Position numbers and translations under genes: made by a program | Shown: positions 40,550 through 64,000 of the stretch, one piece after another | How positions within the stretch are numbered: position 1 is the first letter of the stretch | Layout of the letters: each line of letters starts with the position of its first letter | DNA from: Rickettsiales bacterium | GTDB taxonomy: Bacteria; Pseudomonadota; Alphaproteobacteria; Rickettsiales; JABIRX01 | DNA length: 64,000 bases | Direction: 5' to 3' | Assembly (NCBI GenBank): GCA_965222515.1 | Contig: CBDCUE010000006.1 | Location: 1,543-65,542, forward strand | Notes under the pieces: model-generated | What the model was told of the DNA's origin: nothing | Seen by the model: the letters and a program-made list of their open reading frames with translations, nothing else | Database searches by the model: none

Positions 40550-41353
40550 CTACATATAATAAATCACATTTCGTGATAATTTTTTGTGAATGACGGTAGT
40601 TAGAATTGAGACAATGATTAATAAAGAAAAAAGAGCTATGTGGTCAAAATTATTGGGCATTTCTCCGTTGAAAATTATTTTTGTAAAAGGAGTCATTAAA
40701 ATAGAAAAAGGACTATATTTTAATATTGCTCCAAGTAATCCAGTAATAGATCCTTGTGGATAGATAACGGGGGTTAAGAACATCAAGGCAGGCATAGCAG
40801 CATCTATCAAGGTTTTTATGTCTCTTATATAAGGAAAAAGATAGGCGAGGCAGGTTGCCATACCTGCTATAATTAGAAAAAATATGGCAAAATATAAGGG
40901 AAAAAATATCATAGTAAGATGAAATTTTGCTTCAAAGAAAAAACCGATCACTACAAAAATTATTATTAGAGAAATAAAATAAATTCTAACTTGCTTGAAT
41001 ATTTCTACAATTATAAAGGTAGTTTTTGGAATTGGGCAAAGCTTTAAAATATTAGCATTTCCTACTATGGCACTAGGGGCCATAGTGATAATCCCAGCTA
41101 TTAAAATCCATAAAGTAATGTTGGTGGTTAGAAAAAAAGGATAATTGCTGACAGCAGGAAATCTTGAAATTCTAGAAAATACAACTGCATATACGGCAAT
41201 TAAGATGAATGGTTTGATGACCATCCAAATATTTCCTAAATAAGACACTCCATATTCTACTTTATAATGTCTATTTAAAATGGTAAATATTGATTGCCAG
41301 TAATATTTATTAAAAGCAGAGTTTTTTAGAATGTCTATTGAATATTTAATCAT
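40550..41353 (-). CDS. wzm: ABC-2 polysaccharide export permease (Wzm-like)
   Basis: Y..SYLG.IW..IKP, multiple TM segments, RD...L, FLTPVIYP. Confidence 0.85.
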   Translation of the reverse strand: MIKYSIDILKNSAFNKYYWQSIFTILNRHYKVEYGVSYLGNIWMVIKPFILIAVYAVVFSRISRFPAVSNYPFFLTTNITLWILIAGIITMAPSAIVGNANILKLCPIPKTTFIIVEIFKQVRIYFISLIIIFVVIGFFFEAKFHLTMIFFPLYFAIFFLIIAGMATCLAYLFPYIRDIKTLIDAAMPALMFLTPVIYPQGSITGLLGAILKYSPFSILMTPFTKIIFNGEMPNNFDHIALFSLLIIVSILTTVIHKKLSRNVIYYM

Positions 41354-42087
41354 AATTTTAAAATTTTATTTTCATATAATTTTATCATTTTTTTTGTTTC
41401 TCCAAAATCAATGATTTCTCCTTTTTCCATTAAATAGCATTTATCGCATAAGGATTCCATTTCTTTGGTGCTATGAGATACTGAAATGCCAATATCTACA
41501 TCTTGCCATTTTTTAATCATAAACTTTGTAGATTTTTTAATAAATCCTTGATCTCCTGTAGCAAATACTTCATCTAATAATAAAATATCTGTTTCTTGAA
41601 AAACTCCACAAGAAAAAGCAAATCTAGCAGACATACCGCTAGAATAATTCACTAATGGTTTGTCGATATATTCTCCTAATTCACTAAACTCAATGATTTT
41701 TGCTTCTAATTCTTTTGAATATTGATCAAGATTATTTCTAAAAATAAAAGATAATTTTATGTTGTCTCTACCAGTTAAAGTGCTAATAAATTCGGCTCCC
41801 AAGCCAACTAAAGGGGTTATTTTTCCAGTAATATTGACCTGACCTTTGCAATGAGGATAGGTTCCAATTATGGTTTTTAATAAAGAGCTTTTTCCAGAGC
41901 CGTTTTTTCCTAAAATACCAATTCTATCTCCTAATTTTGCTTCAAAATTAATGTCCTTTAGGATTGGAATGGAGTTTGGTTGAATATTTTTATTATTTTT
42001 AAATAAAAGTTTTTCTCTAAGAGAGCCTGCTCTTGCTAAATAATCTATTCCCTGAACATAAACATTTTTTAAAACTATAGAAGACAT
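41350..42087 (-). CDS. wzt: ABC polysaccharide export ATPase (Wzt-like)
   Basis: GKNGSGKSS, LTGRDNI, YSSGMSARFAF, LLDEVFATGD..F. Confidence 0.88.
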   Translation of the reverse strand: MSSIVLKNVYVQGIDYLARAGSLREKLLFKNNKNIQPNSIPILKDINFEAKLGDRIGILGKNGSGKSSLLKTIIGTYPHCKGQVNITGKITPLVGLGAEFISTLTGRDNIKLSFIFRNNLDQYSKELEAKIIEFSELGEYIDKPLVNYSSGMSARFAFSCGVFQETDILLLDEVFATGDQGFIKKSTKFMIKKWQDVDIGISVSHSTKEMESLCDKCYLMEKGEIIDFGETKKMIKLYENKILKL

Positions 42088-42587: not shown

Positions 42588-43090
42588 GTCGCACCTAAAT
42601 AATTACATTTTTAGTTAAATTAACAATTATTAAATAATAAAAAGTGTGTTTTTTCTTAAAAAAATACTTTTTATTACAAAAATTACCATTTGGATTTTGG
42701 TAAAAAGATAACTATCTATGCAGTTTAACAGCTTTCTTAAGTTTAAATCCCATAGCAGTTGCTATTGCATTCATATTATCGCCCACTTTCCCTTTAAGAT
42801 AACATCTTGCCCCCCTTGAGTCATCATTTTTAATATGACCTATCACTGGCTCTATCGCATTTCTTCGTTTTTGATATTTCTTTTGCAAAATAGATAATGT
42901 TTTCTTTCTTGTTCTTGCCAAAATAACATTTTTATCTTTTATTCCATGACCTTTATAGCCTTGATCAACATAAACCTCCCTAAAACTCTTGCCACTCAAC
43001 CTTTCTGCTTGTTCCAAATTAGATTTTAATGTATGTCCATCATACGGATTGTTATCAAATGATTTTGCTCCTAAAACAAAATTTGACCTA
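42588..43090 (-). mobile_element. IS5-family 3' fragment (inverted copy of the 61495-62986 element)
   Basis: Near-identical to 62484-62986; end GTCGCACCTAAA; ORF 42712-43017 has VYVDQGY...RRNAIEPVIGHIK; truncated by IS3. Confidence 0.88.
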
Positions 43091-44648
43091 GTATGATGAG
43101 CCCAAAAAGTTGGACAGGATTTGAGAAAAAATAAGGTAGAATATTTTTTGATTTATTGGTTAAAAAAAGATTAAAATAATTTTTAAAAACAAAATTAATA
43201 ATCACAAAAATGTTAAGTAAAAAAATAAGAAAAACCCATAGTAATAGTTTTAAATTTCAAGTGGTATTGAAATATTTAAAAGGTCAAGTTACGGTATCTG
43301 AATTAAGTCAAGAATTTAAGATTAGTAGCTCTTGTATTAATAAATGGGTGAAGCAATTTAAAGAAGGAGGTAAGGAGATATTTAGTTCAAATAATAACAT
43401 TGAATTGTCAAATAAAAGCTTAGAAATTTCAAAACTTCATGAGAAAATAGTAGAGGTAATAATGGAGAGGGATTTTTTAAAAAAAGTATTGGGGGAGTAG
43501 CTATGGAAACAAGAAAAAATTTTATAAATATAGCACACCCCCATTTTTCTATTAACAAACAATGTCAGATATTAGAGGTTGGAAAATCTAGCTATTACTA
43601 TCAACAAAAGCCCCGAATAATTTCATCAGATTTACTTAATGATATAAGAGAAATATGGAGTAAGCATCCATTTTTGGTTATAGAAAAATTTCAGTAATGT
43701 TATAAAGAATTGGTTATGATATAAGCAGCAAACAGGTTAGAGGTTTGATGAATTATATGAGTATTAAAGCCATATACAGCAAGCCAAATACAAGTAAAAG
43801 TGATAAAAATAGTTATAAACATCCATATCTTTTAAAGAATATGGATGTTTATAAATCAAATCAAGTATGGCAAATAGATATAACTTATATAAAAATACCT
43901 AGTAAAGGATTTGTGTATTTAGTTGCATTAATAGATGTTTACAGTAGATATGTGGTATCATGGGATTTATGTATTGGATTGCAGGTGGAGTTTAGTTTAG
44001 ATGTGCTGGAGGTTGCTTTATCTAAAGGTAGAGTGCCAGTTATTATTAATAGTGATCAAGGAGTTCAATATACTTCAAGTGACTGGATTGAAGCTCTTAA
44101 GAAAAATGGTATAAAAATTAGTATGGATGGCAAAGGTAGATGGGCAGATAATATTTATATTGAAAGATTTTGGAGGGCTATAAAATATGAAGAAATTTAT
44201 ATTAACCCTCCTGAAACATTGTCAATATTAAGAAGTAATATAGCAAAATATATGTTGTTTTATAATAATATAAGACCTCATCAATCTTTAAATTATCAAA
44301 CTCCGTCAGCTATTTATTACAGTTAATAATGGAGCTTCGCTCCATAGGTATTTATAAAATAAAAATAAGAAGTTGATATTATTGTAAGGAGGTTTTATAA
44401 TAAGTTTATGGAACAGGCAGAGGTGCCGATGACCATAAATGAAGATAAAAACTAGATGATTTATTTTTATTTTATCTAGTTTTTTAAATGATAAAATTAG
44501 CAATAATTTTATCATTATTTATGTAATTTTATCTCATTATTTGATTTAAAATTACAAAGGTTTTAATGGTTTTTTTTAGGAACAAATTAAAGGCAAATTC
44601 TATCTTAAATTTTTCTAAAACCTGTCCAGTCAAAAGGGCTCACCATAC
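43091..44648 (+). mobile_element. IS3-family element, degraded (orfA 43210-43500; orfB 43503-44326 with frameshift and stop)
   Basis: IRs GTATGATGAGCCCAAAAAGTTGGACAGG / CCTGTCCAGTCAAAAGGGCTCACCATAC; DDE motifs WQIDITYI, NSDQGVQY, DNIYIERFWR; T5 run at 43671-43675 one base short, then an in-frame TAA. Confidence 0.9.
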
Positions 44649-44756
44649 TTGGTATGTTCTTAAATCATCAATTGAATTTATTGCTATAAAATCATTCGCT
44701 AAACTGCTTTGATGAGTTATTATAAATGCTATAAAAATTAAAAATGCTTTTAACAT
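44649..44756 (-). pseudogene. 36-codon 5' stub of a paralogous secreted toxin-like gene, truncated by IS3
   Basis: MLKAFLIFIAFIITHQSSLANDFIAINSIDDLRTYQ aligns with MLKTFIIFITFLINTQLSFGNFIAINSIDTIGLYQ of 45556-46995, with a shared upstream TCTATCAAAATAAGAAAAGATAA motif. Confidence 0.82.
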
Positions 44757-44894
44757 TATTCTTTCTTTCTGTTTTTTTAAAATTTAACTTTTTTAGTATC
44801 TTTTATCTTTTCTTATTTTGATAGAGATTTTTTAATCTTTTTTAAAATCTTCTTTTTCAAATTCTTCTAAACAAAAATCTTCTTTTCATAGTCT

Positions 44895-45551
44895 TTAGCC
44901 CTTATAAATGTTCTTACTTGGATCTTTTAATCCATCTCCTGTATCACAATTATACCAATCTCCCTTAAGGGATTTGCAAGATTTCTTATATTCTTCTATC
45001 TCTTTCTTGCTCATATCCTCCATATCTTCTTCATCCTCCTCTCCATCATAATACCAATAGGCTGATGGAAACAAACAATCAAAATGTGCATCTAAAAAAA
45101 ATTCAAAATCTATATAATCCACTTCTTTTTGAAATTCCTTCTCATCTCCTTCTTTTGGGAGTATCTCTCCAAAAATTCTAATAGTCTCTTCTATTGATAT
45201 ATTCTTATCAAGCTTTATAATATCTGTTGCTGTAAGAGCTTTATAAGGAAAAACTAAATCTTCTGATCTAAAACAATCTCTTACTGGATCTCTTTCTTTA
45301 TATTCTTTTATACAAAATTTTCTTGCTATTTCCCTTCCAAACCTCAATAACCCCTTCCTCATATAATATTCTATTAATTCCAAAAATAATTGTTTTCTTA
45401 CTTGAAAGGCTAGATTGAGATCACATACTGAATTATTTACATGCATCCATAAATCCCAAGGGTTGGCATTATGCTCTTTCATAATATCTTCTAATTTATC
45501 TACCTCATATTCTTCTAAAAAATATTGTTTATATTGTCCTAAAAATATCAT
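44895..45551 (-). CDS. Putative immunity protein, DUF596-like
   Basis: 4 nt downstream of the toxin-like ORF; RKQLFLELIEYYMRKGLLRF...SIEETI..F...PKE...PSAYW pattern recalls DUF596; acidic. Confidence 0.6.
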   Translation of the reverse strand: MIFLGQYKQYFLEEYEVDKLEDIMKEHNANPWDLWMHVNNSVCDLNLAFQVRKQLFLELIEYYMRKGLLRFGREIARKFCIKEYKERDPVRDCFRSEDLVFPYKALTATDIIKLDKNISIEETIRIFGEILPKEGDEKEFQKEVDYIDFEFFLDAHFDCLFPSAYWYYDGEEDEEDMEDMSKKEIEEYKKSCKSLKGDWYNCDTGDGLKDPSKNIYKG

Positions 45552-45555
45552 AATT

Positions 45556-46995
45556 TTAATCTGTAAATTTTATTTCATATTTTATATATTTATTTGCTCT
45601 ATTAGGATTTGGCTTCATAATATCAATATTCAAATTACCTGGATTGCTTGTTGATACTCTTCTTATCTTTATTTTTGTTCCGTCAGAATGAGTATATACA
45701 TCTATAGGTTCTCCTTGTTTTGTATGCTCTTTTTTCTTCGTCGCTCCCTCAGTAAATTTCTTAATAACCTCTTGTTGCTTTTTTTTACTTACTCCCTCAT
45801 ACATCCTTGCTCCTTTCGGTCCTTTCTTCTCATGTTGTTTCCCCTTTATTATCTCTCCATCTCCTAAATCTAAATCTATTGCATTTCTCTTATTTCCTGC
45901 ATCACTATCTCTCATAAAGTCATTTACTATATCTAAACTATTTCTTCTTTTTTTCTTATTTGTTTCTTTATCATCAGGATCCTGATTATCATTGTTTCCT
46001 CCTCCTGTTGTTATTATTCTTGTTTCTTGCTTTTTATCTTCTTCTTTATTTTCTACTGCTTCTTCTTTTGGTGCTTCTTCTTGGTTTAATGTTTCTGTTA
46101 TTTTTTCTCCTGTTACTAATGCTTTTGCTACATCTATTGCTTTCTTAGCACCTTTTATTACTCCATTTCTACAAGTGCTGTTTTTTGCACAAGCTGCACC
46201 AGAAGCAACAATAACACCTCCATAATTTGCCTTATCATTTGCATTTCTTACACTCTTATTTCCATTTCTTAATACCTTATTATTACTAGCCGTATGCTCA
46301 TTATTCCAATCCGCACTTGTTCTTGTATTCGTATTAACATTGCCATTCGCAGCATTATTATAATCCCAAACCTTCTGTGCATAATCTCCTCTTCTCTTCG
46401 CTGTCTTCTCATTATCTTTATGTGTTTCATGGTTTGTTCCCTCATGATATAAAACATTTATCACCTCTCCACTATTTGCTAAATCTGTATTTGCTGTGTT
46501 TACATTTATTTTACTTTCTCCTGTGTCTTTATCATAATATGCTGATCCCTTTGACTGAGCTTTATCCTGCGATAATATCACCTCTCCATCATGACCATCA
46601 GCATTATTCGCATTTGCATCATCTACCGTTTTTTGTGCCGTTGCTTGAACTTCTTCTGGAGTATAGTTTGTCAAACCATTCATCTTATCCGTCGTCTCTT
46701 GATCTTTTTGTGTTGTTTCTATCCCATTCACTACACCCAAATTAATCTCCTTCTGATCTTTATAACTACTATCTTTTCCATTCAATCTTACATTATCATA
46801 TGCCGCCGTTAAAAATGCTTTTTTTGTAATGCCTTCTTGATTGGCTTTCTTTATGTTTATTCCAGTGGTTTCTTCTGTTACTGCCCTTTCTTGGTATAAC
46901 CCTATTGTATCAATTGAATTTATAGCAATAAAATTACCAAAACTTAATTGTGTATTTATTAAAAATGTTATGAAAATTATAAATGTTTTTAACAT
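45556..46995 (-). CDS. Putative secreted polymorphic toxin (signal peptide, HExxxH segment, acidic linker, basic nuclease-like C-terminal domain)
   Basis: Hydrophobic N-terminus, LYHEGTNH, CAKNSTC, EK-rich linker, C-terminal YTHSDGTKIKIRRVSTSNPGNLNIDI...YEIKF; small ORF immediately downstream. Confidence 0.62.
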   Translation of the reverse strand: MLKTFIIFITFLINTQLSFGNFIAINSIDTIGLYQERAVTEETTGINIKKANQEGITKKAFLTAAYDNVRLNGKDSSYKDQKEINLGVVNGIETTQKDQETTDKMNGLTNYTPEEVQATAQKTVDDANANNADGHDGEVILSQDKAQSKGSAYYDKDTGESKINVNTANTDLANSGEVINVLYHEGTNHETHKDNEKTAKRRGDYAQKVWDYNNAANGNVNTNTRTSADWNNEHTASNNKVLRNGNKSVRNANDKANYGGVIVASGAACAKNSTCRNGVIKGAKKAIDVAKALVTGEKITETLNQEEAPKEEAVENKEEDKKQETRIITTGGGNNDNQDPDDKETNKKKRRNSLDIVNDFMRDSDAGNKRNAIDLDLGDGEIIKGKQHEKKGPKGARMYEGVSKKKQQEVIKKFTEGATKKKEHTKQGEPIDVYTHSDGTKIKIRRVSTSNPGNLNIDIMKPNPNRANKYIKYEIKFTD

Positions 46996-47080
46996 TGTTT
47001 TTGCTTACTGTTTTTTTTGATATTGAACTTTTTTATTATCTGTTATCTTTTCTTATTTTGATAGATGTTTGTTGTTTTTA

Positions 47081-47439
47081 GGGAGCGTTAAATCTATTTG
47101 TTTTTAGTTTTCATATTCCTTCCAAACTTTGAAAGATTTTACTTGGTATTTGAGCCAATTATTTCTTTCAAAATCCTTAATGACTACAAAGACATGATCT
47201 AACAATCTGTCTTCATTTTCAAAGCTAATTTTATGTTTATACTATTTTAATTTTATAATTGACCTATAGCCTTCAATCTGCTCAGCATAAATTGCTTTTT
47301 TTAATAATCTGTTAGCTATGGCTAGCAAATCATTAAAAAAAACAATTTCTACTAAACATCTTTTTGGCTATAGGTCAATTATAAAATTAAAATAGTATTA
47401 GTAGCTTTTCTAATCTGACACTTAAGATTTTCTATTCCA
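47081..47439 (-). mobile_element. IS256-family 3' remnant interrupted by a MITE
   Basis: Removing the MITE and one TTA restores IENLKCQIRKATKHKISFENEDRLLDHVFVVIKDFERNNW...*; end GGGAGCGTTAAATC at 47081. Confidence 0.72.
47240..47397. mobile_element. 158-bp MITE, copy 2
   Basis: Perfect 32-bp TIR and TTA target duplication (47237-47239, 47398-47400); inverted relative to 10276-10433. Confidence 0.92.
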
Positions 47440-47627
47440 TAATATAAATGTTCTTGCTGTTTTTTGCACAAATTTCTTTAAAAATTCCTATTTCTAATAG
47501 ATTATTTTAAAATAATAAAATTATCAACTTCTATTATGTTTAAATTTATTTTAATAGATCTTTTATATAAAATTCCTTTTATTATTTTATCCTCAAATTA
47601 TCATTTTTTACCCATACTCACTTACTG

Positions 47628-48125
47628 CTATTTTGTCCAACCTATACAATCCAATATCTCTCCTGTATCTATGTCTATTAAATAATTAAAACCATTCTGT
47701 AATCCCGCACTAAATTCACATTTTGATAAATCTAAATTAGGCTCATCTATCTCTATTTCATGTTTATCTACCATTATTGCATATTCCTTAATAACTTTTC
47801 CATTTTCTTTTATTTCAATAGCCATTCCTACATATACACTATCTTCTTTATACCCCTTATGATTATATTCTGCTACTTGCCATAATAATTTTCCTGTCTG
47901 TTTGCTGTAGCAAAAGAGATTTTCTCTTACTCGTTCTTCAGGAGTGGCATCTCTTGGTGAAATATTTTCTATTTTTTCTCTTGCATAAAAAGCTAAATTT
48001 AACCAATTAACTAAAAAGATTATTCTATCGGGTAATTCTATATATGATAATATTCTACTTTTAAAATCTACCTTAAATTTACCAAACTTTGCTATACTTC
48101 TATTTTTATTTAATTTGATGCTCAT
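47628..48125 (-). CDS. Array putative immunity protein, copy 1
   Basis: 165 aa with LPDRII...NLFCYSKQTGKLLWQV...YLIDIDTGEIL..GWTK; protein identical to copy 5. Confidence 0.85.
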   Translation of the reverse strand: MSIKLNKNRSIAKFGKFKVDFKSRILSYIELPDRIIFLVNWLNLAFYAREKIENISPRDATPEERVRENLFCYSKQTGKLLWQVAEYNHKGYKEDSVYVGMAIEIKENGKVIKEYAIMVDKHEIEIDEPNLDLSKCEFSAGLQNGFNYLIDIDTGEILDCIGWTK

Positions 48126-48132
48126 ATAATTT

Positions 48133-48312
48133 TTATTGTAAAGGTTTTGTATTTAAATACCATTCAGGTTTTATTTCTTGCAATATCTCTGTCTGTAGTC
48201 CTTCTCCTTGTCCAAAACTATTACTCCCTGCTCTTCCTGTTCTTATCTCTCTATTTTTAGGCAATTTTACATCCGTTACCCATAATATAAATGTTCTTGC
48301 TGTTTTTTGCAC
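48133..48312 (-). pseudogene. Toxin-tail ORF (59 codons)
   Basis: GTG...WVTDVKLPKNREIRTGRAGSNSFGQGEGLQTEILQEIKPEWYLNTKPLQ*, ending 7 nt before the next ATG. Confidence 0.65.
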
Positions 48313-48470
48313 AGATTTCTTTAAAAATTCCTATTTCTAATAGATTATTTTAAAATAATAAAATTATCAACTTCTATTATGTTTAAATTTATTTTAATAG
48401 ATCTTTTATATAAAATTCCTTTTATTATTTTATCCTCAAATTATCATTTTTTACCCATACTCACTTACTG

Positions 48471-48968
48471 CTATTTTGTCCAACCTATACAATCCAATAT
48501 CTCTCCTGTATCTATGTCTATTAAATACTCAAAACCATTCTGTAATCCCGCACTAAATTCACATTTTGATAAATCTAAATTAGGCTTATCTATCTCTATT
48601 TCATGTTTATCTACCATTATTGCATATCTCTTCACAACTTTTCCATTTTCTTTTATTTCAATAGCCATTCCTACATATACACTATCTTCTTTATACCCCT
48701 TATGATTATATTCTGCTACTTGCCATAATAATTTTCCTGTCTGTTTGCTGTAGCAAAAGAGATTTTCTCTTACTCGTTCTTCAGGAGTGGCATCTCTTGG
48801 TGAAATATTTTCTATTTTTTCTCTTGCATAAAAAGCTAAATTTAACCAATTAACTAAAAAGATTATTCTATCGGGTAATTCTATATATGATAATATTCTA
48901 CTTTTAAAATCTACCTTAAATTTACCAAACTTTGCTATACTTCTATTTTTATTTAATTTGATGCTCAT
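48471..48968 (-). CDS. Array putative immunity protein, copy 2
   Basis: KSRILS / EDS / VKRY / FEY allele combination. Confidence 0.85.
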   Translation of the reverse strand: MSIKLNKNRSIAKFGKFKVDFKSRILSYIELPDRIIFLVNWLNLAFYAREKIENISPRDATPEERVRENLFCYSKQTGKLLWQVAEYNHKGYKEDSVYVGMAIEIKENGKVVKRYAIMVDKHEIEIDKPNLDLSKCEFSAGLQNGFEYLIDIDTGEILDCIGWTK

Positions 48969-48975
48969 ATAATTT

Positions 48976-49155
48976 TTATTGTAAAGGTTTTGTATTTAAA
49001 TACCATTTAGGTTCTATTTTTTGCAATATCTCTGTCTGTAGTCCTTCTCCTTGCCCAAAACTATTACTCCCTGCTCTTCCTGTTCTTATCTCTCTATTTT
49101 TAGGCAATTCTACATCCGTTACCCATAATATAAATGTTCTTGCTGTTTTTTGCAC
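48976..49155 (-). pseudogene. Toxin-tail ORF
   Basis: Variant DVE..NRE..LQKIEPKW. Confidence 0.6.
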
Positions 49156-49313
49156 AAATTTCTTTAAAAATTCCTATTTCTAATAGATTATTTTAAAATA
49201 ATAAAATTATCAACTTCTATTATGTTTAAATTTATTTTAATAGATCTTTTATATAAAATTCCTTTTATTATTTTATCCTCAAATTATCATTTTTTACCCA
49301 TACTCACTTACTG

Positions 49314-49811
49314 CTATTTTGTCCAACCTATACAATCCAATATCTCTCCTGTATCTATGTCTATTAAATACTCAAAACCATTATGTAATCCCGCACTAAA
49401 TTCACATTTTGATAAATCTAAATTAGGCTTATCTATCTCTATTTCATGTTTATCTACCATTATTGCATATTCCTTAATAACTTTTCCATTTTCTTTTATT
49501 TCAATACCCATTCCTACATATACACTTTTCACTTTATACCCCTTATGATTATATTCTGCTACTTGCCATAATAATTTTCCTGTCTGTTTGCTGTAGCAAA
49601 AGAGATTTTCTCTTACTCGTTCTTCAGGAGTGGCATCTCTTGGTGAAATATTTTCTATTTTTTCTCTTGCATAAAAAGCTAAATTTAACCAATTAACTAA
49701 AAAGATTATTCTATCGGGTAATTCTATATATGATAATATTCTACTTTTAAAATCTACCTTAAATTTACCAAACTTTGCTATACTTCTATTTTTATTTAAT
49801 TTGATGCTCAT
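49314..49811 (-). CDS. Array putative immunity protein, copy 3
   Basis: KSRILS / VKS / GIE / IKEY combination. Confidence 0.85.
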   Translation of the reverse strand: MSIKLNKNRSIAKFGKFKVDFKSRILSYIELPDRIIFLVNWLNLAFYAREKIENISPRDATPEERVRENLFCYSKQTGKLLWQVAEYNHKGYKVKSVYVGMGIEIKENGKVIKEYAIMVDKHEIEIDKPNLDLSKCEFSAGLHNGFEYLIDIDTGEILDCIGWTK

Positions 49812-49818
49812 ATAATTT

Positions 49819-49998
49819 TTATTGTAAAGGTTTTGTATTTAAATACCATTCAGATTTTATTTTTTGCAATATCTCTGTCTGTAGTCCTTCTCCTTGTCCA
49901 AAACTATTACTCCCTGCTCTTCCTGTTCTTATCTCTCTATTTTTAGGCAATTCTACATCCGTTACCCATAATATAAATGTTCTTGCTGTTTTTTGCAC
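49819..49998 (-). pseudogene. Toxin-tail ORF
   Basis: Variant DVE..NRE..LQKIKSEW. Confidence 0.6.
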
Positions 49999-50137
49999 AA
50001 ATTTCTTTAAAAATTCCTATTTCTAATAGATTATTTTAAAATAATAAAATTATCAACTTCTATTATGTTTAAATTTATTTTAATAGATCTTTTATATAAA
50101 ATTCCTTTTATTATTTTTTACCCATACTCACTTACTG

Positions 50138-50641
50138 CTATTTTGTCCAACCTATACAATCCAATATCTCTCCTGTATTTATGTCTATTAAATACTTAAA
50201 ACCATTCTGTAATCCCGCAATAAATTCACATTTTGATAAATCTAAATTAGGCTCATCTATCTCTATTTCATCTTTATCTACCATTATTGCATATCTCTTC
50301 ACAACTTTTCCATTTTCTTTTATATAAAATCTCATTCCTACATATACACTATCTTCTTTATACCCCTTATGATTATATTCTGCTACTTGCCATAATAATT
50401 TTCCTGTCTGTTTGCTGTAGCAAAAGAGATTTTCTCTTACTCGTTCTTCAGGAGTGGCTTCTCTTGGCAGAAGTTCCCTTCCTGCTATTTTTTCTCTTTC
50501 ATGAAAAGCTAAATTTAATGGATTAACTAAAAAAAATATTCTATCAGGTAATGCTATATATGATCTTATAGCAGTTTTAAAATCTACTTTAAATTTACCA
50601 AACTTTGCTATACTTCTATTTTTATTTAATTTGATGCTCAT
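50138..50641 (-). CDS. Array putative immunity protein, copy 4 (167 aa)
   Basis: KTAIRS / AGRELLPRE insertion allele / EDS / RFY. Confidence 0.85.
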   Translation of the reverse strand: MSIKLNKNRSIAKFGKFKVDFKTAIRSYIALPDRIFFLVNPLNLAFHEREKIAGRELLPREATPEERVRENLFCYSKQTGKLLWQVAEYNHKGYKEDSVYVGMRFYIKENGKVVKRYAIMVDKDEIEIDEPNLDLSKCEFIAGLQNGFKYLIDINTGEILDCIGWTK

Positions 50642-50648
50642 ATAATTT

Positions 50649-50828
50649 TTATTGTAAAGGTTTTGTATTTAAATACCATTCAGGTTTTATTTCGTCCAAT
50701 ATCTCTGTCTGTAGTCCTTCTCCTTGCCCAAAACTATTACTCCCTGCTCTTCCTGTTCTTATATCTCTATTTTTAGGCAATTTTACATCCGTTACCCATA
50801 ATATAAATGTTCTTGCTGTTTTTTGCAC
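50649..50828 (-). pseudogene. Toxin-tail ORF
   Basis: Variant DVK..NRD..LDEIKPEW. Confidence 0.6.
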
Positions 50829-50986
50829 AGATTTCTTTAAAAATTCCTATTTCTAATAGATTATTTTAAAATAATAAAATTATCAACTTCTATTATGTTT
50901 AAATTTATTTTAATAGATCTTTTATATAAAATTCCTTTTATTATTTTATCCTCAAATTATCATTTTTTACCCATACTCACTTACTG

Positions 50987-51484
50987 CTATTTTGTCCAAC
51001 CTATACAATCCAATATCTCTCCTGTATCTATGTCTATTAAATAATTAAAACCATTCTGTAATCCCGCACTAAATTCACATTTTGATAAATCTAAATTAGG
51101 CTCATCTATCTCTATTTCATGTTTATCTACCATTATTGCATATTCCTTAATAACTTTTCCATTTTCTTTTATTTCAATAGCCATTCCTACATATACACTA
51201 TCTTCTTTATACCCCTTATGATTATATTCTGCTACTTGCCATAATAATTTTCCTGTCTGTTTGCTGTAGCAAAAGAGATTTTCTCTTACTCGTTCTTCAG
51301 GAGTGGCATCTCTTGGTGAAATATTTTCTATTTTTTCTCTTGCATAAAAAGCTAAATTTAACCAATTAACTAAAAAGATTATTCTATCGGGTAATTCTAT
51401 ATATGATAATATTCTACTTTTAAAATCTACCTTAAATTTACCAAACTTTGCTATACTTCTATTTTTATTTAATTTGATGCTCAT
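50987..51484 (-). CDS. Array putative immunity protein, copy 5
   Basis: Protein identical to copy 1. Confidence 0.85.
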   Translation of the reverse strand: MSIKLNKNRSIAKFGKFKVDFKSRILSYIELPDRIIFLVNWLNLAFYAREKIENISPRDATPEERVRENLFCYSKQTGKLLWQVAEYNHKGYKEDSVYVGMAIEIKENGKVIKEYAIMVDKHEIEIDEPNLDLSKCEFSAGLQNGFNYLIDIDTGEILDCIGWTK

Positions 51485-51491
51485 ATAATTT

Positions 51492-51671
51492 TTATTGTAA
51501 AGGTTTTGTATTTAAATACCATTCAGGTTTTATTTCTTGCAATATCTCTGTCTGTAGTCCTTCTCCTTGTCCAAAACTATTACTCCCTGCTCTTCCTGTT
51601 CTTATCTCTCTATTTTTAGGCAATTTTACATCCGTTACCCATAATATAAATGTTCTTGCTGTTTTTTGCAC
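51492..51671 (-). pseudogene. Toxin-tail ORF
   Basis: Same peptide as 48133-48312. Confidence 0.6.
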
Positions 51672-51829
51672 AGATTTCTTTAAAAATTCCTATTTCTAAT
51701 AGATTATTTTAAAATAATAAAATTATCAACTTCTATTATGTTTAAATTTATTTTAATAGATCTTTTATATAAAATTCCTTTTATTATTTTATCCTCAAAT
51801 TATCATTTTTTACCCATACTCACTTACTG

Positions 51830-52327
51830 CTATTTTGTCCAACCTATACAATCCAATATCTCTCCTGTATCTATGTCTATTAAATACTCAAAACCATTCT
51901 GTAATCCCGCACTAAATTCACATTTTGATAAATCTAAATTAGGCTTATCTATCTCTATTTCATGTTTATCTACCATTATTGCATATCTCTTCACAACTTT
52001 TCCATTTTCTTTTATTTCAATAGCCATTCCTACATATACACTTTTCACTTTATACCCCTTATGATTATATTCTGCTACTTGCCATAATAATTTTCCTGTC
52101 TGTTTGCTGTAGCAAAAGAGATTTTCTCTTACTCGTTCTTCAGGAGTGGCATCTCTTGGTGAAATATTTTCTATTTTCTTTCTTGCATAATAAGCTAAAT
52201 TTAATGGACTAACTAAAAAGATTATTCTATCAGGTAATGCTATATATGATCTTATAGCAGTTTTAAAATCTACCTTAAATTTACCAAACTTTGCTATACT
52301 TCTATTTTTATTTAATTTGATGCTCAT
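51830..52327 (-). CDS. Array putative immunity protein, copy 6
   Basis: KTAIRS / SPL / VKS / VKRY. Confidence 0.85.
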   Translation of the reverse strand: MSIKLNKNRSIAKFGKFKVDFKTAIRSYIALPDRIIFLVSPLNLAYYARKKIENISPRDATPEERVRENLFCYSKQTGKLLWQVAEYNHKGYKVKSVYVGMAIEIKENGKVVKRYAIMVDKHEIEIDKPNLDLSKCEFSAGLQNGFEYLIDIDTGEILDCIGWTK

Positions 52328-52334
52328 ATAATTT

Positions 52335-52514
52335 TTATTGTAAAGGTTTTGTATTTAAATACCATTTAGATTCTATTTTTTGCAATATCTCTGTCTGTAG
52401 TCCTTCTCCTTGTCCAAAACTATTACTCCCTGCTCTTCCTGTTCTTATCTCTGTATTTTTAGGCAATTCTACATCCGTTACCCATAATATAAATGTTCTT
52501 GCTGTTTTTTGCAC
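52335..52514 (-). pseudogene. Toxin-tail ORF
   Basis: Variant DVE..NTE..LQKIESKW. Confidence 0.6.
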
Positions 52515-52672
52515 AGATTTCTTTAAAAATTCCTATTTCTAATAGATTATTTTAAAATAATAAAATTATCAACCTCTATTATGTTTAAATTTATTTTAAT
52601 AGATCTTTTATATAAAATTCCTTTTATTATTTTATCCTCAAATTATCATTTTTTACCCATACTCACTTACTG

Positions 52673-53170: not shown

Positions 53171-53177
53171 ATAATTT

Positions 53178-53357
53178 TTATTGTAAAGGTTTTGTATTTA
53201 AATACCATTTAGGTTCTATTTCGTCCAATATCTCTGTCTGTAGTCCTTCTCCTTGTCCAAAACTATTACTCCCTGCTCTTCCTGTTCTTATCTCTCTATT
53301 TTTAGGCAATTCTACATCCGTTACCCATAATATAAATGTTCTTGCTGTTTTTTGCAC
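53178..53357 (-). pseudogene. Toxin-tail ORF
   Basis: Variant DVE..NRE..LDEIEPKW. Confidence 0.6.
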
Positions 53358-53515
53358 AGATTTCTTTAAAAATTCCTATTTCTAATAGATTATTTTAAAA
53401 TAATGAAATTATCAACTTCTATTATGTTTAAATTTATTTTAATAGATCTTTTATATAAAATTCCTTTTATTATTTTATCCTCAAATTATCATTTTTTACC
53501 CATACTCACTTACTG

Positions 53516-54013: not shown

Positions 54014-54020
54014 ATAATTT

Positions 54021-54200: not shown

Positions 54201-54358
54201 AAATTTCTTTAAAAATTCCTATTTCTAATAGATTATTTTAAAATAATAAAATTATCAACTTCTATTATGTTTAAATTTATTTTAATAGATCTTTTATATA
54301 AAATTCCTTTTATTATTTTATCCTCAAATTATCATTTTTTACCCATACTCACTTACTG

Positions 54359-54856: not shown

Positions 54857-54863
54857 ATAATTT

Positions 54864-55686: not shown

Positions 55687-57351
55687 GAGTCTGCTGAATT
55701 AGATAATATTTTCCAATAAAAAATTAATTCTTTCCAAAAGACATTTTTTTAAATTTTAAAAATATATTTTCAAATTATTTTTTAATCCATTTTTAGTTTT
55801 TTATTTAATTTTTAATGTAATATTTGTATTAAACCTCTCTTAATGCTTTAAATAAGTTAAAACTAACCATAGCTATACTAGTTTGAATGGCAGCTCCATT
55901 CATAGTTTTCAACACTATTTTATTTAATGTGTAATCTTTTTTTAAATTTCCTATTACCCCCTCAACTCTAGACCTTGATTTCCTCAATTTCCTTTTTTCT
56001 AATTTTTGCTTAGCTGTAGATTTTCCTTGATTCTTAAGACTATGTTTTATATCAAAACTCTTTAATAAAGCTTTATTATCAAACGAAGAATAACCATCAT
56101 CTATCAGAACCTTCTTCGGCAATCTCTCAAATCTATCTTGATGATTTGCTAAACTATTCTTTAATTCTAACTTCTCATTAAATGCCCTATGCTCTACTTT
56201 ATCACTAAACACATAACCATCTGTTAAAGCTATATGTGCCTTTGCTCCAAATTCTGTTTTTTTACCTCCTTCCTTGCCTCTTTTGATTGGTCTTACAAAT
56301 GGTTGGTCAAAACTTATTATTCTGCCTGGAATACTTGTAACCTTTTCTTTGTATTTTCTTTGTTGTTGCCTAAAAATCTCTTTTCCTACTACTAACTTTT
56401 TTTCTATTTCCTTTATTAACCCTTGTAAACCCACCTCCTCAATCAATCCTAACTGAAAATTACCAGACGATAATTTCTTCTTTGCTCCCTTTATTATTGC
56501 TACCAATTGATTAATATTTCTATTAGTAAAATTCAACATTTTCCTAGTTGCCTTATTTATTACTTTCTTGTTCTTCTGCTTCTTTTTTGCAAAATCTAAA
56601 TATACTTTCTTTGCTTTTCTTTTGTAAGTTCTTATCTTCTCTTCTATTTTGAACTTTTTTTTTAATATATCTATTTGCTTAATTGCATAACTTCTTACAG
56701 TATTAAGCAATTTTACATCATTTGGATATTCTATTTTACTCTCAAACACTGTACCATCAAGCAACAATTCTTTTCCTTTGACAAACCTTTTATCCTTTAG
56801 CACCTCTAATATTTCTGATTCAAATTTTAAAAAATACTCTGCTCCTAATTTATTTCTTCTTTTTGTTAATAAGCTAGGATCCATCACTTTTGTTATCTTG
56901 CTTACAAAAGTATCATAACCACAAAAATATTGAAAATATGGATTTTCATAAAAATATTCTAATATCTCAACATCACTCAAACCTAATCTTACTTTACCGA
57001 TAAGCAAACCTAGCACTAATTTAGCTGATTTTACCACTCCCAATCTTTTAGGATCAAAATATTTATCATGAAGTGCAATCAAATTATCCCAAGGAACTAG
57101 CTCTGATAATTTTATCCATCTGTTGTTTTCGTCTAACTTACCTCCAAAAGGCATCATATCTGCAAATAATGGTAATGTTCTCATAGCAATGTCTAAAAAA
57201 AATTATATTTTTTTCTAAAAAAGTGCAAAGGTTTTCTCGTCATTATCTTCAAACCTTTGCATTTTTACTCAAAAATCTAACATAAATATACCACTCAAAC
57301 CCTTATAATACAACCCTTTTCCTTGCTTTTTTTACCTAATTCAGCAGACTC
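55687..57351 (-). mobile_element. IS5-like element, 1665 bp, 6-bp target duplication
   Basis: 16-bp perfect IR GAGTCTGCTGAATTAG / CTAATTCAGCAGACTC; TATTTA duplicated at 55681-55686 and 57352-57357. Confidence 0.93.
55829..57184 (-). CDS. IS5-like DDE transposase
   Basis: NRWIKLSELVPWD, ENPYFQYFCG, LLDGTV....I.YPND, EFGAK, LIDDGY, RSRVEGVIG. Confidence 0.9.
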   Translation of the reverse strand: MRTLPLFADMMPFGGKLDENNRWIKLSELVPWDNLIALHDKYFDPKRLGVVKSAKLVLGLLIGKVRLGLSDVEILEYFYENPYFQYFCGYDTFVSKITKVMDPSLLTKRRNKLGAEYFLKFESEILEVLKDKRFVKGKELLLDGTVFESKIEYPNDVKLLNTVRSYAIKQIDILKKKFKIEEKIRTYKRKAKKVYLDFAKKKQKNKKVINKATRKMLNFTNRNINQLVAIIKGAKKKLSSGNFQLGLIEEVGLQGLIKEIEKKLVVGKEIFRQQQRKYKEKVTSIPGRIISFDQPFVRPIKRGKEGGKKTEFGAKAHIALTDGYVFSDKVEHRAFNEKLELKNSLANHQDRFERLPKKVLIDDGYSSFDNKALLKSFDIKHSLKNQGKSTAKQKLEKRKLRKSRSRVEGVIGNLKKDYTLNKIVLKTMNGAAIQTSIAMVSFNLFKALREV

Positions 57352-58558: not shown

Positions 58559-59047
58559 CTATTTTGTCCAACCTATACAATCCAATATCTCTCCTGTATT
58601 TATGTCTATTAAATACTTAAAACCATTCTGTAATCCCGCAATAAATTCACATTTTGATAAATCTAAATTAGGCTCATCTATCTCTATTTCATCTTTATCT
58701 ACCATTATTGCATATCTCTTCACAACTTTTCCATTTTCTTTTATATAAAATCTCATTCCTACATATACACTTTTCACTTTATACCCCTTATGATTATATT
58801 CTGCTACTTGCCATAATAATTTTCCTGTCTGTTTGCTGTAGCAAAAGAGATTTTGACTTATTTCGTATAAATTAGTTGCATGATACCAATTTAATAAAAT
58901 TATTATTCTATCTGGTAACTCTATTAAATATTTAATTTCATTAGGAGCTTTTATAACTAAATTATTATCTAATTCTATATTAGTATTTACAAAAGTCTCT
59001 TCCCCAGCAGATAAAATCTTCTTTGTTTTATGTAATTTATATCCCAT
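58559..59047 (-). CDS. Array putative immunity protein, copy 12, divergent N-terminal half
   Basis: MGYKLHKTKK...IELPDRIIILLNWYHATNLYEISQNLF, then the same C-terminal half as copy 8. Confidence 0.85.
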   Translation of the reverse strand: MGYKLHKTKKILSAGEETFVNTNIELDNNLVIKAPNEIKYLIELPDRIIILLNWYHATNLYEISQNLFCYSKQTGKLLWQVAEYNHKGYKVKSVYVGMRFYIKENGKVVKRYAIMVDKDEIEIDEPNLDLSKCEFIAGLQNGFKYLIDINTGEILDCIGWTK

Positions 59048-59049: not shown

Positions 59050-59238
59050 TTATTTTATTTTAATTGTATTTTTAAACCAATTCGAATTAATGTCTTCTCT
59101 AGGTACCAATATCTCTGTCTGTAGTCCTTCTCCTTGTCCAAAACTATTACTCCCTGCTCTTCCTGTTCTTATCTCTGTATTTTTAGGCAATTTTACATCC
59201 GTTACCCATAATATAAATGTTCTTGCTGTTTTTTGCAC
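59050..59238 (-). pseudogene. Toxin-tail ORF with divergent tip
   Basis: ...GLQTEILVPREDINSNWFKNTIKIK*. Confidence 0.65.
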
Positions 59239-61494: not shown

Positions 61495-62986
61495 GTCGTC
61501 CCTAAAAAACTATAAAAAGCCTTGCAGTATAAGGTTTTTTTTGTATAATTTGCATAGTAAAAACACAAGCTTATTACCAATAACTCTTAAAACCTTGCAA
61601 AAATGTTACACAAAACTCACCAAACAGGAAATGATATGGATATGTTCAGAAATGAATTAGTAAATATCATAAATATGAAACATAAATTAGTAATATTGTC
61701 AAAATTAGTAGATTGGAGAAGCATGGAAAAGAAGTTTTCTATAAAATATAGTAATTTGGGAAGAGGAGGACTACCTATAAGATTAATGTGTGGATTATTG
61801 ATGTTAAAAGAAATAGAAAAGCAATCAGATGAAAAGATATGTGAGCTTTGGGTAGAGAATCCATATTATCAATATTTTTGTGGAAGTAGATATTTTGAGC
61901 ATAAGTTACCAACAGTTCCAGAGAATTTGGTGTATTTTAGAAAAAGAATAGGAGAAGAAGGGATGGAATATTTGTTTTCAGAAACAATAGAAATAGCAAA
62001 AAATACAAAAGTTTTAAAATCAGCTGATTTTAAAAGAGTAACAGTAGATAGCACAGTTCAAGAAAAAGCAATAACTTATCCTACAGATACTAAGCTGTGC
62101 CATAAAGCAAGGGAGAGTTTGGTAAAGTTGGCAGAAGCAGAGGGTATAAAATTGAGGCAGAATTATAAAATAGTTGGTAAAAAGAGTCTTTTTATGTCAG
62201 CGAGATACAGTATGTCAAGAAAGGGTAGAAAAGCAAAAGCAGAACAGAAAAAAGTAAAGAATTATTTGGGTAGAGTAATAAGGGATATTGATAATAAGAA
62301 AGGAGATTTGAAAAACAATAGTAAATTATTTCAAGCATTGCTAAGAGCAAAGTTAATTTACAATCAGCAAAGAACGGATAAGAATAAGATTTATTCATGG
62401 CATGAAGATGTGAGTTGCATAAGTAAGGGAAAAGCTCACAAGAAATATGAGTTTGGTTGTAAAGTAGGTTTTGTAGTAAGTTCTAGGTCAAATTTTGTTT
62501 TAGGAGCAAAATCATTTGATAACAATCCGTATGATGGACATACATTAAAATCTAATTTGAAACAAGCAGAAAGGTTGAGTGGCAAGAGTTTTAGGAAGGT
62601 TTATGTTGATCAAGGCTATAAAGATCATGGAATAAAAGATAAAAATGTTATTGTGGCAAGAACAAGAAAGAAAACATTATCTATTTTGCAAAAGAAATAT
62701 CAAAAACGAAGAAATGCGATAGAGCCAGTGATAGGTCATATTAAAAATGATGGCTCAAGGGGGGCAAGATGTTATCTTAAAGGAAAAATGGGCGATAATA
62801 TGAATGGCAATAGCAACTGCTATGGGATTTAACTTAAGAAAGCTGTTAAACTGCATAGATAGTTATCTTTTTGCCAAAATCCAAATGGTAATTTTTGTAA
62901 TAAAAAGTATTTTTTTAAGAAAAAACACACTTTTTATTATTTAATAATTGTTAATTTAACTAAAAATGTAATTATTTAGGTGCTAC
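61495..62986 (+). mobile_element. IS5-family element with non-matching flanks
   Basis: Ends TA|GTCGTCCCTAAA and TTTAGGTGCTAC|TA (compare GTCGCACCTAAA at 42588). The left flank is array gene; the right flank is IS3 sequence equivalent to 44473. Confidence 0.88.
61603..62832 (+). CDS. IS5-family transposase, frameshifted near the C-terminus
   Basis: ENPYYQYFCG, VDSTVQEKAITYPTD, KYEFGCKV, GNPYDGHTL-like NNPYDGHTL, VDQGY; extra G near 62805 relative to the 42712-43017 copy. Confidence 0.9.
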   Translation: MLHKTHQTGNDMDMFRNELVNIINMKHKLVILSKLVDWRSMEKKFSIKYSNLGRGGLPIRLMCGLLMLKEIEKQSDEKICELWVENPYYQYFCGSRYFEHKLPTVPENLVYFRKRIGEEGMEYLFSETIEIAKNTKVLKSADFKRVTVDSTVQEKAITYPTDTKLCHKARESLVKLAEAEGIKLRQNYKIVGKKSLFMSARYSMSRKGRKAKAEQKKVKNYLGRVIRDIDNKKGDLKNNSKLFQALLRAKLIYNQQRTDKNKIYSWHEDVSCISKGKAHKKYEFGCKVGFVVSSRSNFVLGAKSFDNNPYDGHTLKSNLKQAERLSGKSFRKVYVDQGYKDHGIKDKNVIVARTRKKTLSILQKKYQKRRNAIEPVIGHIKNDGSRGARCYLKGKMGDNMNGNSNCYGI

Positions 62987-63595
62987 TATCTAGTTTTTTA
63001 AATGATAAAATTAGCAATAATTTTATCATTATTTATGTAATTTTATCTCATTATTTGATTTAAAATTACAAAGGTTTTAATGGTTTTTTTTAGGAATAAA
63101 TTAAAGGCAAATTCTATCTTAAATTTTTCTAAAACCTGTCCAGTCAAAAGGGCTCACCATACTTGGTATGTTCTTAAATCATCAATTGAATTTATTGCTA
63201 TAAAATCATTCGCTAAACTGCTTTGATGAGTTATTATAAATGCTATAAAAATTAAAAATGCTTTTAACATTATTCTTTCTTTCTGTTTTTTTAAAATTTA
63301 ACTTTTTTAGTATCTTTTATCTTTTCTTATTTTGATAGAGATTTTTTAATCTTTTTTAAAATCTTTCCAAAAATCTTCTTTTTCAAATTCTTCTAAACAA
63401 AAATCTTCTTTTCATAGTCTTTAGCCCTTATAAATATTCTTACTTGGATCTTTTAATCCATCTCCTGTATCACAATTATACCAATCTCCCTTAAGGGCTT
63501 TGCAAGATTTCTTATATTCTTCTATCTCTTTCTTGCTCATATCCTCCATATCTTCTTCATCCTCCTCTCCATCATAATACCAATAGGCTGATGGA
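62987..63595. repeat. Near-identical second copy of 44473-45069 (IS3 right end, toxin stub, intergenic, 3' end of the DUF596-like gene)
   Basis: Direct alignment with a few substitutions and 12 extra nt near 63365. Confidence 0.93.
63163..63270 (-). pseudogene. 36-codon 5' stub of toxin-like gene, copy 2
   Basis: Identical to 44649-44756, with the same IS3 junction. Confidence 0.82.
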
Positions 63596-64000
63596 GGGAG
63601 TCCATAAAAATAAAAATCTAAATGAGTATCAAAACTTACCTTTTGTTTTGTTCCGCAATATTTTTCATCTCCTTCTTTAGGAAAACTTTTATCAAAATAA
63701 GCAATCACATCTTCTGTTTTTGTTTTTTCATCAAATTTTACATAGTCTTTTGTATTTTCACGATAATCCTTTGGTAATTCATCCATTAAAGCTTCTCTGC
63801 TTGTGTATCCTTTTCCCTTAAACCTCAATAACCCCTTCCTCATATAATATTCTATTAATTCCAAAAATATCTGCTTCTTTTCGCTTAGAGGGAGGTTTAA
63901 AGTTTTTGCTGGATATATTGTATTATCCCATATATCTATTGGTTTTACAAATGGATACTCCATATCATCCTCAAGATTTTTTAAATCATATTGATCTAAA
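63421..64000 (-). CDS. Second DUF596-like putative immunity protein (5' end outside window)
   Basis: Frame is open to the window edge (LDQYDLKNLEDDMEY aligns with LEEYEVDKLEDIMKE of 44895-45551); shares FLELIEYYMRKGLLRF and a near-identical C-terminus. Confidence 0.65.
   Translation of the reverse strand, partial: LDQYDLKNLEDDMEYPFVKPIDIWDNTIYPAKTLNLPLSEKKQIFLELIEYYMRKGLLRFKGKGYTSREALMDELPKDYRENTKDYVKFDEKTKTEDVIAYFDKSFPKEGDEKYCGTKQKVSFDTHLDFYFYGLPPSAYWYYDGEEDEEDMEDMSKKEIEEYKKSCKALKGDWYNCDTGDGLKDPSKNIYKG

Follow-up and report, generated by a model that had tools for sequence, protein, structure and literature searches.

Architecture of the gene pair

The 64,000-nt window analyzed here, a stretch of contig CBDCUE010000006.1 from a Rickettsiales bacterium, carries two adjacent open reading frames (ORFs) on its minus strand that very likely form a Sec-dependent polymorphic toxin/immunity cassette. 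The first, the toxin gene (46995..45556), encodes 479 amino acids and was delimited from the ORF listing and by direct reading of the strand. The second, the immunity gene (44895..45551), encodes an acidic 218-aa protein without a signal peptide and was assigned from the ORF listing, its composition, and its metagenomic homologues. Only 4 nt separate the toxin stop from the immunity start (TAA-AATT-ATG). Composition and sequence place an HEGTNH motif at toxin residues 184-189, CAKNSTC at 269-275, an acidic linker at 297-348 (pI 4.45, net charge -7), and a basic C terminus at 349-479 (pI 9.8, net charge +11), all of them where a preliminary description of this DNA had put them, together with the acidic ORF downstream. 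The 218-aa protein has a pI of 4.68 and a net charge of -17, and the apparent complementarity of this charge with that of the toxin tip counts in favor of a cassette. Both frames are intact within a region riddled with insertion sequences (IS) and each part has independent homologues, so the pair is more than a chance arrangement. Pfam and NCBIfam searches over all ORFs of the toxin locus returned nothing significant, and neither a tblastn search of plasmids nor an Rfam scan of the window gave a match. PDB sequences, queried by single sequence and by profile with the toxin, the pre-toxin module, the tip, and the immunity protein, likewise yielded no meaningful match.

The toxin consists of a signal peptide (residues 1-20), a lineage-specific stretch reaching to residue ~58, a pre-toxin module (59-250), a segment with a Cys pair, a linker, and a C-terminal toxin domain; these features, like the gene pair itself, all lie on the minus strand. 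The Sec-type signal peptide (46936..46995) was recognized from its hydrophobicity profile, with cleavage predicted after G20, between MLKTFIIFITFLINTQLSFG and NF. It has one Lys, a hydrophobic core of ~15 residues (Kyte-Doolittle about 2.0-2.3), and a small -3/-1 pair, S-F-G. This pair reads SFG also in P0002, a 392-aa relative described below, SLA before N in two truncated paralogues in the window, and SFA before N in P0032. That a small -3/-1 pair is kept despite sequence drift argues for a real cleavable Sec signal, and the signal peptide proposed in the preliminary description agrees with the n, h, and c regions seen here and with the -3/-1 rule across copies.

Residues 251-296 (46108..46245) form a short basic, partly hydrophobic segment that holds the Cys pair of CAKNSTC. 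It is here that homologues begin to diverge: the segment aligns, with deletions, to a Gly/Ala-rich segment preceding the toxin tips of P0002 and P0006, and AlphaFold2 (AF2) models it with low confidence. The equivalent segment of P0006 gives a sub-cut-off match to the N-terminal part of Ntox10 (E 3.8e-5; 24.1 bits vs a cut-off of 26.8). The acidic, low-complexity linker that follows (residues 297-348; 45952..46107) is predicted to be disordered, as judged from its pI and a predicted local distance difference test score (pLDDT) below 50.

Relatives of the pre-toxin module

The pre-toxin domain proper covers residues ~100-250 (46246..46698), with homology reaching back to ~59, and was defined by phmmer, the architectures of its homologues, AF2 modeling, Foldseek, and column counts. 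An exhaustive phmmer search of 1.84 billion representative proteins with the 479-aa protein returned 38 proteins, most of which align to residues ~59/95-260. In three long proteins with Fil_haemagg_2 repeats, the module lies near the C terminus, after the repeats (1347-1509 of 1725 aa, 1121-1285 of 1527, and 710-860 of 1136). In many shorter homologues and fragments, it is followed by a tail of 176-298 residues. Among the 24 homologues with tails of at least 80 aa, the tails fall into 21 unrelated BLASTP classes, and the Pfam matches in tails include ParB_N, phage lysozyme, a barnase-family ribonuclease, and LysM, besides the Ntox10-like match below cut-off (24.1 vs 26.8 bits). The preliminary description held that a constant C terminus among proteins sharing the N-terminal domain would speak against a polymorphic toxin; in the set collected here, the C termini vary.

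The only relative of the toxin returned by a word-indexed homology search was P0002, which shares 60 of the first 61 residues with the 479-aa protein, is 76% identical to it between residues 164 and 245, has an unrelated C terminus, and carries HETTNF in place of HEGTNH. Its pre-toxin module is shortened at the N terminus and is followed by a Gly/Ala-rich segment like that of P0006 and by a different basic tip (…KYQFKIKSNNGKDTVIHYIKDPKTEKFLDFKF). P0012 has a signal peptide of its own, followed by a filamentous haemagglutinin (FHA) tail and the pre-toxin module, and the Sec-signal layout thus recurs outside the window. A metagenome scan with a profile built from a five-sequence alignment added two short contigs, L003 and L004, in which the module opens orphan cassettes that have no start codon and lie downstream of small immunity-like genes.

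Because the module sits between haemagglutinin repeats and variable tips in its homologues, we read residues ~59-250, on sequence homology, as the pre-toxin module of CdiA/TpsA-type toxins. The lineage-specific part is limited to the ~58 N-terminal residues, signal peptide included. Pfam leaves the module uncovered, and PT-VENN and DUF637 were found neither in the 479-aa protein nor in its FHA-type homologues. The pre-toxin domains tabulated for type V secretion systems (T5SS) are DUF637, DUF637-N, and PT-VENN (PMC3482391, Table 1), and the present module is not among them. The N-terminal domain had been called unrecognized, which holds in that no Pfam family covers it; residues ~59-250, however, have relatives in the pre-toxin region of CdiA/TpsA-like proteins.

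The locus therefore shows the sequence features by which polymorphic toxins are recognized: a conserved region followed by variable C termini, an immunity gene directly downstream, and a tip that occurs on other carriers, with orphan cassettes in contigs L001-L004. The proposal of a polymorphic toxin with a cognate immunity gene is well supported by the 21 tail classes among 24 homologues, by the exchanged tip of P0002, and by a pairing that recurs in metagenomic contigs (see below).

Predicted fold and conserved motif of the pre-toxin module

An AF2 model of the module was built from a 21-sequence alignment (model residue n is protein residue n+99) and reached a pLDDT of 91.8 and a predicted TM score (pTM) of 0.88. 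In model numbering, its elements are a helix (14-31), three strands (39-43, 51-55, and 62-67), helices 76-92 and 97-117, and two short helices; helix 76-92 is central and bears H85 and E86, which are H184 and E185 of the protein. The top Foldseek matches in the PDB were mostly zincin-like (selecase, CapP, PprI/IrrE, MMP-11, SPRTN, jannalysin, AIP56, MATCAP, and aureolysin), all of them non-significant (best E 0.23, TM 0.38-0.49). Weak Pfam matches among the alignment members were to SprT-like, in 2 of 21 sequences (best E 0.009), and to BSP peptidase, and a profile search of PDB sequences with the module found nothing relevant.

Column counts over the same 21 sequences define the signature HExxN-x3-H-x2-NE (H184-E185-x2-N188-x3-H192-x2-N195-E196). 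H184 and E185 are invariant (21/21 each), and H192 is nearly so (19/21). Position 188 is N in 15 sequences, D in 2, R in 2, S in 1, and H in 1; N195 is kept in 15 of 21; and position 196 is E in 16 and D in 3. H189, the last residue of HEGTNH, occurs solely in the window protein, and 10 sequences have F there. The HExxxH motif, from which self-processing had earlier been proposed, is thus a coincidence confined to one sequence in 21, though it overlaps the real, conserved signature. From their conservation, H192 and residue 196 (E or D in 19/21) are possible metal ligands.

Judged from the model, the fold of the module is probably zincin-like, and this predicted fold is to us the most interesting element of the locus. 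Minimal zincins (the selecase/jannalysin minigluzincins, SprT/Wss1/SPRTN, CapP, and IrrE/PprI) account for most of the top ten Foldseek matches, and the predicted topology is likewise a helix, a three-stranded sheet, a long helix with the invariant H-E, and a helix with a conserved E. The module differs from them in its motif, HExx(N/D)xxxH..NE rather than HExxH, and the Foldseek E values are at least 0.23. It also resembles the PVC-metallopeptidase, for which a "releasing peptidase" role in polymorphic toxins has been described (PMC3482391), in its place directly N-terminal to variable toxin domains, but the window locus has no PVC secretion genes. With a peptidase-like fold predicted, the module may cut its own toxin, although we hold this to be rather doubtful, and we likewise consider it somewhat unlikely that the HExx(N/D)xxxH..NE proteins form an active, undescribed family of minimal zincin-type releasing peptidases in CdiA-like and short Sec-exported toxins. 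If they did, they would provide a concrete enzyme for the long-unclear severing of some contact-dependent toxins from their carriers, and type V systems would gain a new class of enzymes that release toxins; the basic tip would, in addition, be a toxin fold without a solved relative.

The zincin-like module could also be the toxin itself, a peptidase to which the basic C-terminal domain is a targeting or nucleic-acid-binding appendage. It keeps an invariant H and E on what is predicted to be the active-site helix, and zincin-like tips do exist in some polymorphic toxins (Tox-MPTase1-5 and HopH1; PMC3482391). We regard this as extremely unlikely, since the module is constant and stands upstream of 21 different tails, where one would place a pre-toxin or processing domain rather than a warhead, and since the immunity protein co-occurs with the C-terminal domain rather than with the module: orphan fragments retain that domain and the immunity gene with the zincin-like module gone.

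The C-terminal toxin domain

The toxin domain proper, in our reading of the cassette, is the basic C-terminal part (residues 349-479 plus the stop codon; 45556..45951), an alpha+beta domain delimited by AF2 and by its homologues. In a single-sequence model of the full-length protein, residues ~350-479 are the sole confident part (pLDDT 70-92), with a predicted helix (353-366), a strand (396-400), a second helix (404-415), and then five strands. The tip family is tiny, and a profile search for the tip added only two 78-aa fragments. Its members are P0039, in which an Rhs core (RYYDPEIGRF) carries the same toxin domain, and the orphan fragments P0029 and P0042, of 78 aa each. These relatives share the signature DGT-x4-R-x2-ST(S/T)NPGN(I/L)NIDI...K-x-E-(I/L)-KF, and the invariant residues include Y433, D437-G438-T439, R444, S447-T448, N450-P451-G452-N453, N455, D457, K471, E473, and K475.

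The preliminary description had proposed an RNase-like warhead, a claim that gained no direct support. Sequence, profile, and Foldseek searches with the tip matched no Pfam family, PDB sequence, or PDB or BFVD fold; there was no Pfam match at E values up to 10, and no BECR structure stands among the top 50 PDB Foldseek matches listed for the single-sequence model. With BECR-fold RNase toxins, the tip agrees only in the order of its secondary structure and in a loosely similar motif. Given that no fold or family was matched, the RNase assignment draws on composition and on the character typical of toxins of this kind. The tip is basic and small, with a helix-plus-meander layout, its antidote is acidic and cytoplasmic, and nucleases are frequent among such tips (PMC3482391); our best guess for the target is therefore nucleic acid, probably RNA, and RNase-type activity is possible without being probable.

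The immunity gene and its pairing with the tip

The only relative of the 218-aa protein (P0003) in the word-indexed database search is a paralogue on the same contig, P0005 (203 aa; 63421..64000, minus strand), whose first 11 codons lie past the window end. The two proteins are mosaic, diverging in the middle but near-identical in an N-terminal helix block (QLFLELIEYYMRKGLLRF) and over the C-terminal 57 residues. In two metagenomic contigs, L001 and L002, an orphan tip fragment is followed 7 nt on by an ORF whose product has 41-48% identity with the 218-aa protein (41% in L001). This co-occurrence of tip and immunity gene in independent contigs is the strongest evidence that they are a cognate pair. 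Upstream of the tip fragment, L001 (59-459) and L002 (238-638) also hold two ORFs, one of 62 aa that is immunity-like (MNKEIVKIVRDILINEWDPIGISG...) and one of 77 aa overlapping the tip fragment in another frame, which suggests a mixed orphan-cassette array of an AT-rich (30-31% GC) aquatic organism. The sample prefix of L002 resembles that of L003.

The immunity protein had been described as DUF596-like. DUF596 (PF04591) is a recognized immunity family in Neisseria toxin loci, where it corresponds to Imm-NMB0513 (PMC3482391), but the likeness comes down to two Pfam matches below threshold: with the cut-off at 25 bits, one of the three family members reaches 12.6 (E 0.17) and another 15.3 (E 0.025). 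DUF596 is the best or second-best Pfam match for these two, covering profile positions 18-52 and 18-66 of 69, and P0005 has no DUF596 match. A profile of the immunity family found no chain among PDB sequences, including the DUF596 structure 2O5H. The partners of Imm-NMB0513/DUF596 are Ntox7 or Ntox20, whereas the window tip has no Ntox7 match even at an E value of 10. The Ntox7 motif "DGx+xhR, N" (PMC3482391) is loosely like DGT-x4-R...N of the window tip, with a spacing off by one residue, and we take it as a lead only.

Copies of the leader and signal peptide

A conserved ~70-nt 5' leader (TCTATCAAAATAAGAAAAGATAA...; 46996..47065, minus strand), recognized in a three-way DNA alignment, precedes the toxin start codon. 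A second copy lies downstream of the 218-aa gene (44640..44830, minus strand) and leads into a truncated paralogous toxin start (MLKAFLIFIAFIITHQSSLANDFIAINSIDDLRTYQVW*) with its ATG at 44756, which ends after codon 38 at the terminal sequence TGAGCCCTTTTGACTGGACAGG; from its sequence, we read TGAGCCCTTTTGACTGGACAGG as a putative IS3-type terminus. A third copy with the same truncated start (MLKAFLIFIAFIITHQSSLANDFIAINSIDDLRTYQVW*; ATG at 63270) lies downstream of the paralogous immunity gene (63154..63345, minus strand). Both starts are broken at the identical point, which indicates a single IS insertion that was duplicated afterwards rather than two separate events. The duplication is segmental, with 62987-63595 (609 bp) matching 44473-45069 at 97.5% identity, and takes in the final 170 bp of the immunity gene together with the leader, the truncated start of the toxin, and the putative IS3-type end. 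Adjoining it, an IS5-like fragment is copied in inverted orientation (62500-62992 vs 43074-42582, 97.6% identical).

By sequence comparison, the leader and signal-peptide segment appears in at least five copies in this lineage. The locus is laid out as a series of leader, signal peptide, toxin, and immunity modules, with conserved flanks and divergent centers.

Comparison with known toxin systems

The architecture had been called MafB-like. As in the MafB toxins of Neisseria, a constant N-terminal part behind a cleavable signal peptide carries an interchangeable C-terminal toxin, the immunity gene follows directly downstream, and truncated or orphan copies lie nearby, and so the overall logic and the Sec signal stand. 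Zhang et al. (2012; PMC3482391) place MafB and toxins with lineage-specific N-domains in one class, dependent on the type II secretion system (T2SS) or Sec. Membership in MafB is nevertheless rejected, as MafB-N/DUF1020 was absent from Pfam and NCBIfam searches at E values up to 1 and no mafA lipoprotein ORF lies upstream. Where a MafA-like lipoprotein gene would be expected, the window toxin has a 160-nt palindrome and an orphan array; its constant part is homologous to a T5SS-type pre-toxin region; and its host is an alphaproteobacterium, not Neisseria.

To CdiA/TpsA proteins, the filamentous haemagglutinins of contact-dependent inhibition that use type Vb secretion, the likeness lies in residues ~59-250, which are 30-46% identical (E down to 3e-28) to the region intervening between repeats and tip, in tip lengths of 176-298 aa, in orphan cassettes that start at the pre-toxin region, and in downstream immunity genes. 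The window protein differs in being about one tenth the size and in beginning with an ordinary Sec signal. Since the 479-aa protein has no two-partner secretion (TPS) domain, FHA repeats, PT-VENN, or DUF637, and no cdiB or tpsB lies in the 64-kb window, it was not assigned to CdiA/TpsA. Nor was it assigned to Rhs, as YD repeats and the Rhs-associated core occur only in the homologue P0039. The preliminary description had found no match to Rhs, CdiA, or MafB N termini; this is correct for their defining domains, but residues ~59-250 do match the CdiA-type pre-toxin region.

Polymorphic toxins with lineage-specific N termini have been known in principle since 2012, and the locus extends current understanding rather than overturning it. 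It adds three uncatalogued families: a pre-toxin module in FHA-type toxins, a very rare tip without a fold match, and an immunity family.

Proposed mechanism and origin

From these comparisons, we infer how the cassette may work, in terms of export, release by self-cleavage, nuclease activity, and neutralization by binding. Sec would export the toxin to the periplasm, with the signal cleaved after G20, and the toxin would then cross the outer membrane and reach neighboring cells. There the C-terminal domain would be freed from its carrier, possibly by the zincin-like module cutting the linker, and would act in the target cytoplasm, with nucleic acid as the best guess for its target and an RNase-type activity as the likeliest form of attack. 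In sibling cells, the 218-aa protein would bind the toxin domain and neutralize it. As to origin, a cdiA-type orphan cassette (pre-toxin module, tip, and immunity gene) may have been re-armed by fusion to the leader and signal-peptide segment, and cassettes may since have been exchanged by recombination at conserved flanks, provided on the upstream side by the leader and signal peptide and on the downstream side by the 3' end of the immunity gene. Taken as a whole, the cassette with this mechanism and origin is a probable explanation of the locus. It would illustrate how the business end of a giant contact-dependent toxin, placed behind a simple Sec signal, becomes a MafB-like weapon in an alphaproteobacterium.

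Several observations weigh against this explanation. No outer-membrane export partner (TpsB, MafA-like lipoprotein, or type VI secretion system) lies within the 64-kb window, where the only ORF of ~580 aa is DnaG, not TpsB. A scan for promoters and terminators gave no enrichment over shuffled sequences. The zincin assignment draws on non-significant Foldseek matches and on a motif without the canonical second histidine: most sequences lack HExxH (1/21) and have HExxN (15/21) or HExxD (2/21). P0002 is without the first helix and strand of the pre-toxin domain, so peptidase activity cannot be essential in every family member. The tip, as noted above, resembles no known family or fold. Finally, the region around the toxin gene is full of IS elements and truncated copies, and the gene may therefore be a recent relic.

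The last point leads to another reading of the locus, as the decaying remnant of an orphan cdiA-CT/immunity cassette whose frame happens to be open after it fused to a hydrophobic N-terminal fragment and which was left stranded among IS elements without a secretion partner. Two sister copies were cut by an IS after codon 38, IS transposases flank the locus on either side, the metagenomic sequences most closely related to the pre-toxin domain are orphan cassettes that lack a start codon, and neither a TPS domain, an FHA repeat, or TpsB nor a promoter signal above chance was found in the window. Against this stand the intact frames of 479 and 218 codons, a complete pre-toxin domain that models at a pLDDT of 92, a leader and signal-peptide unit conserved in at least five copies with its cleavage motif maintained, and P0012, where a signal peptide also precedes the same module. 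We consider a remnant clearly improbable.

Genomic setting

The window has a GC content of 28% and encodes the alphaproteobacterial markers CcrM, FzlA, 5-aminolevulinate synthase, and an alpha-type AddB, as well as the outer-membrane markers MlaA and a Pal/OmpA-type lipoprotein. Together, these indicate a Gram-negative, AT-rich alphaproteobacterium as the host, and the nearest match of the window's RpoB is the Caulobacter crescentus protein (PDB 7YE1). Also encoded are purD, dapB, prephenate dehydrogenase, and FolD.

A further alternative to an interbacterial weapon is that, in an intracellular symbiont, the toxin hits the eukaryotic host or, as an addiction module, enforces retention of the locus. 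An AT-rich, IS-rich genome is what many alphaproteobacterial endosymbionts have; endosymbiont polymorphic-toxin-like proteins with lineage-specific N-domains have been reported (PMC3482391); and toxin-antitoxin-like polymorphic toxin systems have been proposed to maintain a Paracaedibacter-like symbiont (PMC8163844). Yet orphan cassettes, and an immunity gene that is tightly linked, leaderless, and co-varying, are hallmarks of conflict among related bacteria, host-directed versions usually come without immunity genes (PMC3482391), and the biosynthetic genes listed above speak against a strongly reduced genome. We hold a host-directed effector or addiction module to be less probable still than a decaying remnant.

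Near the toxin locus, the transposase ORFs are of three kinds: a broken IS3-type ORF (43210..44326, plus strand), an IS5-like ORF (61603..62832, plus strand) with a fragment at 42712..43017 (minus strand), and another transposase ORF (55829..57184, minus strand). Past the IS remnants, at 40550-42087 on the minus strand, are a 267-aa ORF resembling an ABC-2 type permease and a 245-aa ATPase-like ORF, both judged by eye; we saw no link between them and the toxin locus.

Directly upstream of the toxin gene, on the minus strand, 15 units of ~843 bp are arrayed in tandem (47469-61580). Each unit has a 59-aa ORF resembling the C-terminal ~60 residues of a different toxin (MQKTARTFILWVTDV...GEGLQTEIL...) and a 165-aa immunity-like ORF, with no Pfam or NCBIfam match in any unit. 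The units are mosaic at clustered sites, and a variant toxin tail (…TEILVPREDINSNWFKNTIKIK, 59050..59238) sits with a variant immunity N terminus (58559..59047), as expected of co-evolving partners. The IS at 55829..57184 splits one unit, the IS5-like element at 61603 cuts the first, and at about 47430 the last toxin tail breaks off after ...TFILW.

Between the array and the toxin leader is a near-perfect palindrome of 160 nt (47239-47398) with 78-nt arms that are 83% complementary. As RNA, it folds at -85.7 kcal/mol (z = -15.9), and it may insulate the toxin gene transcriptionally. Its 21-nt core recurs exactly between rpoC and ccrM, in a second copy near 10296, which makes it look like a dispersed palindromic element of the miniature inverted-repeat transposable element (MITE) or repetitive extragenic palindromic (REP) kind.

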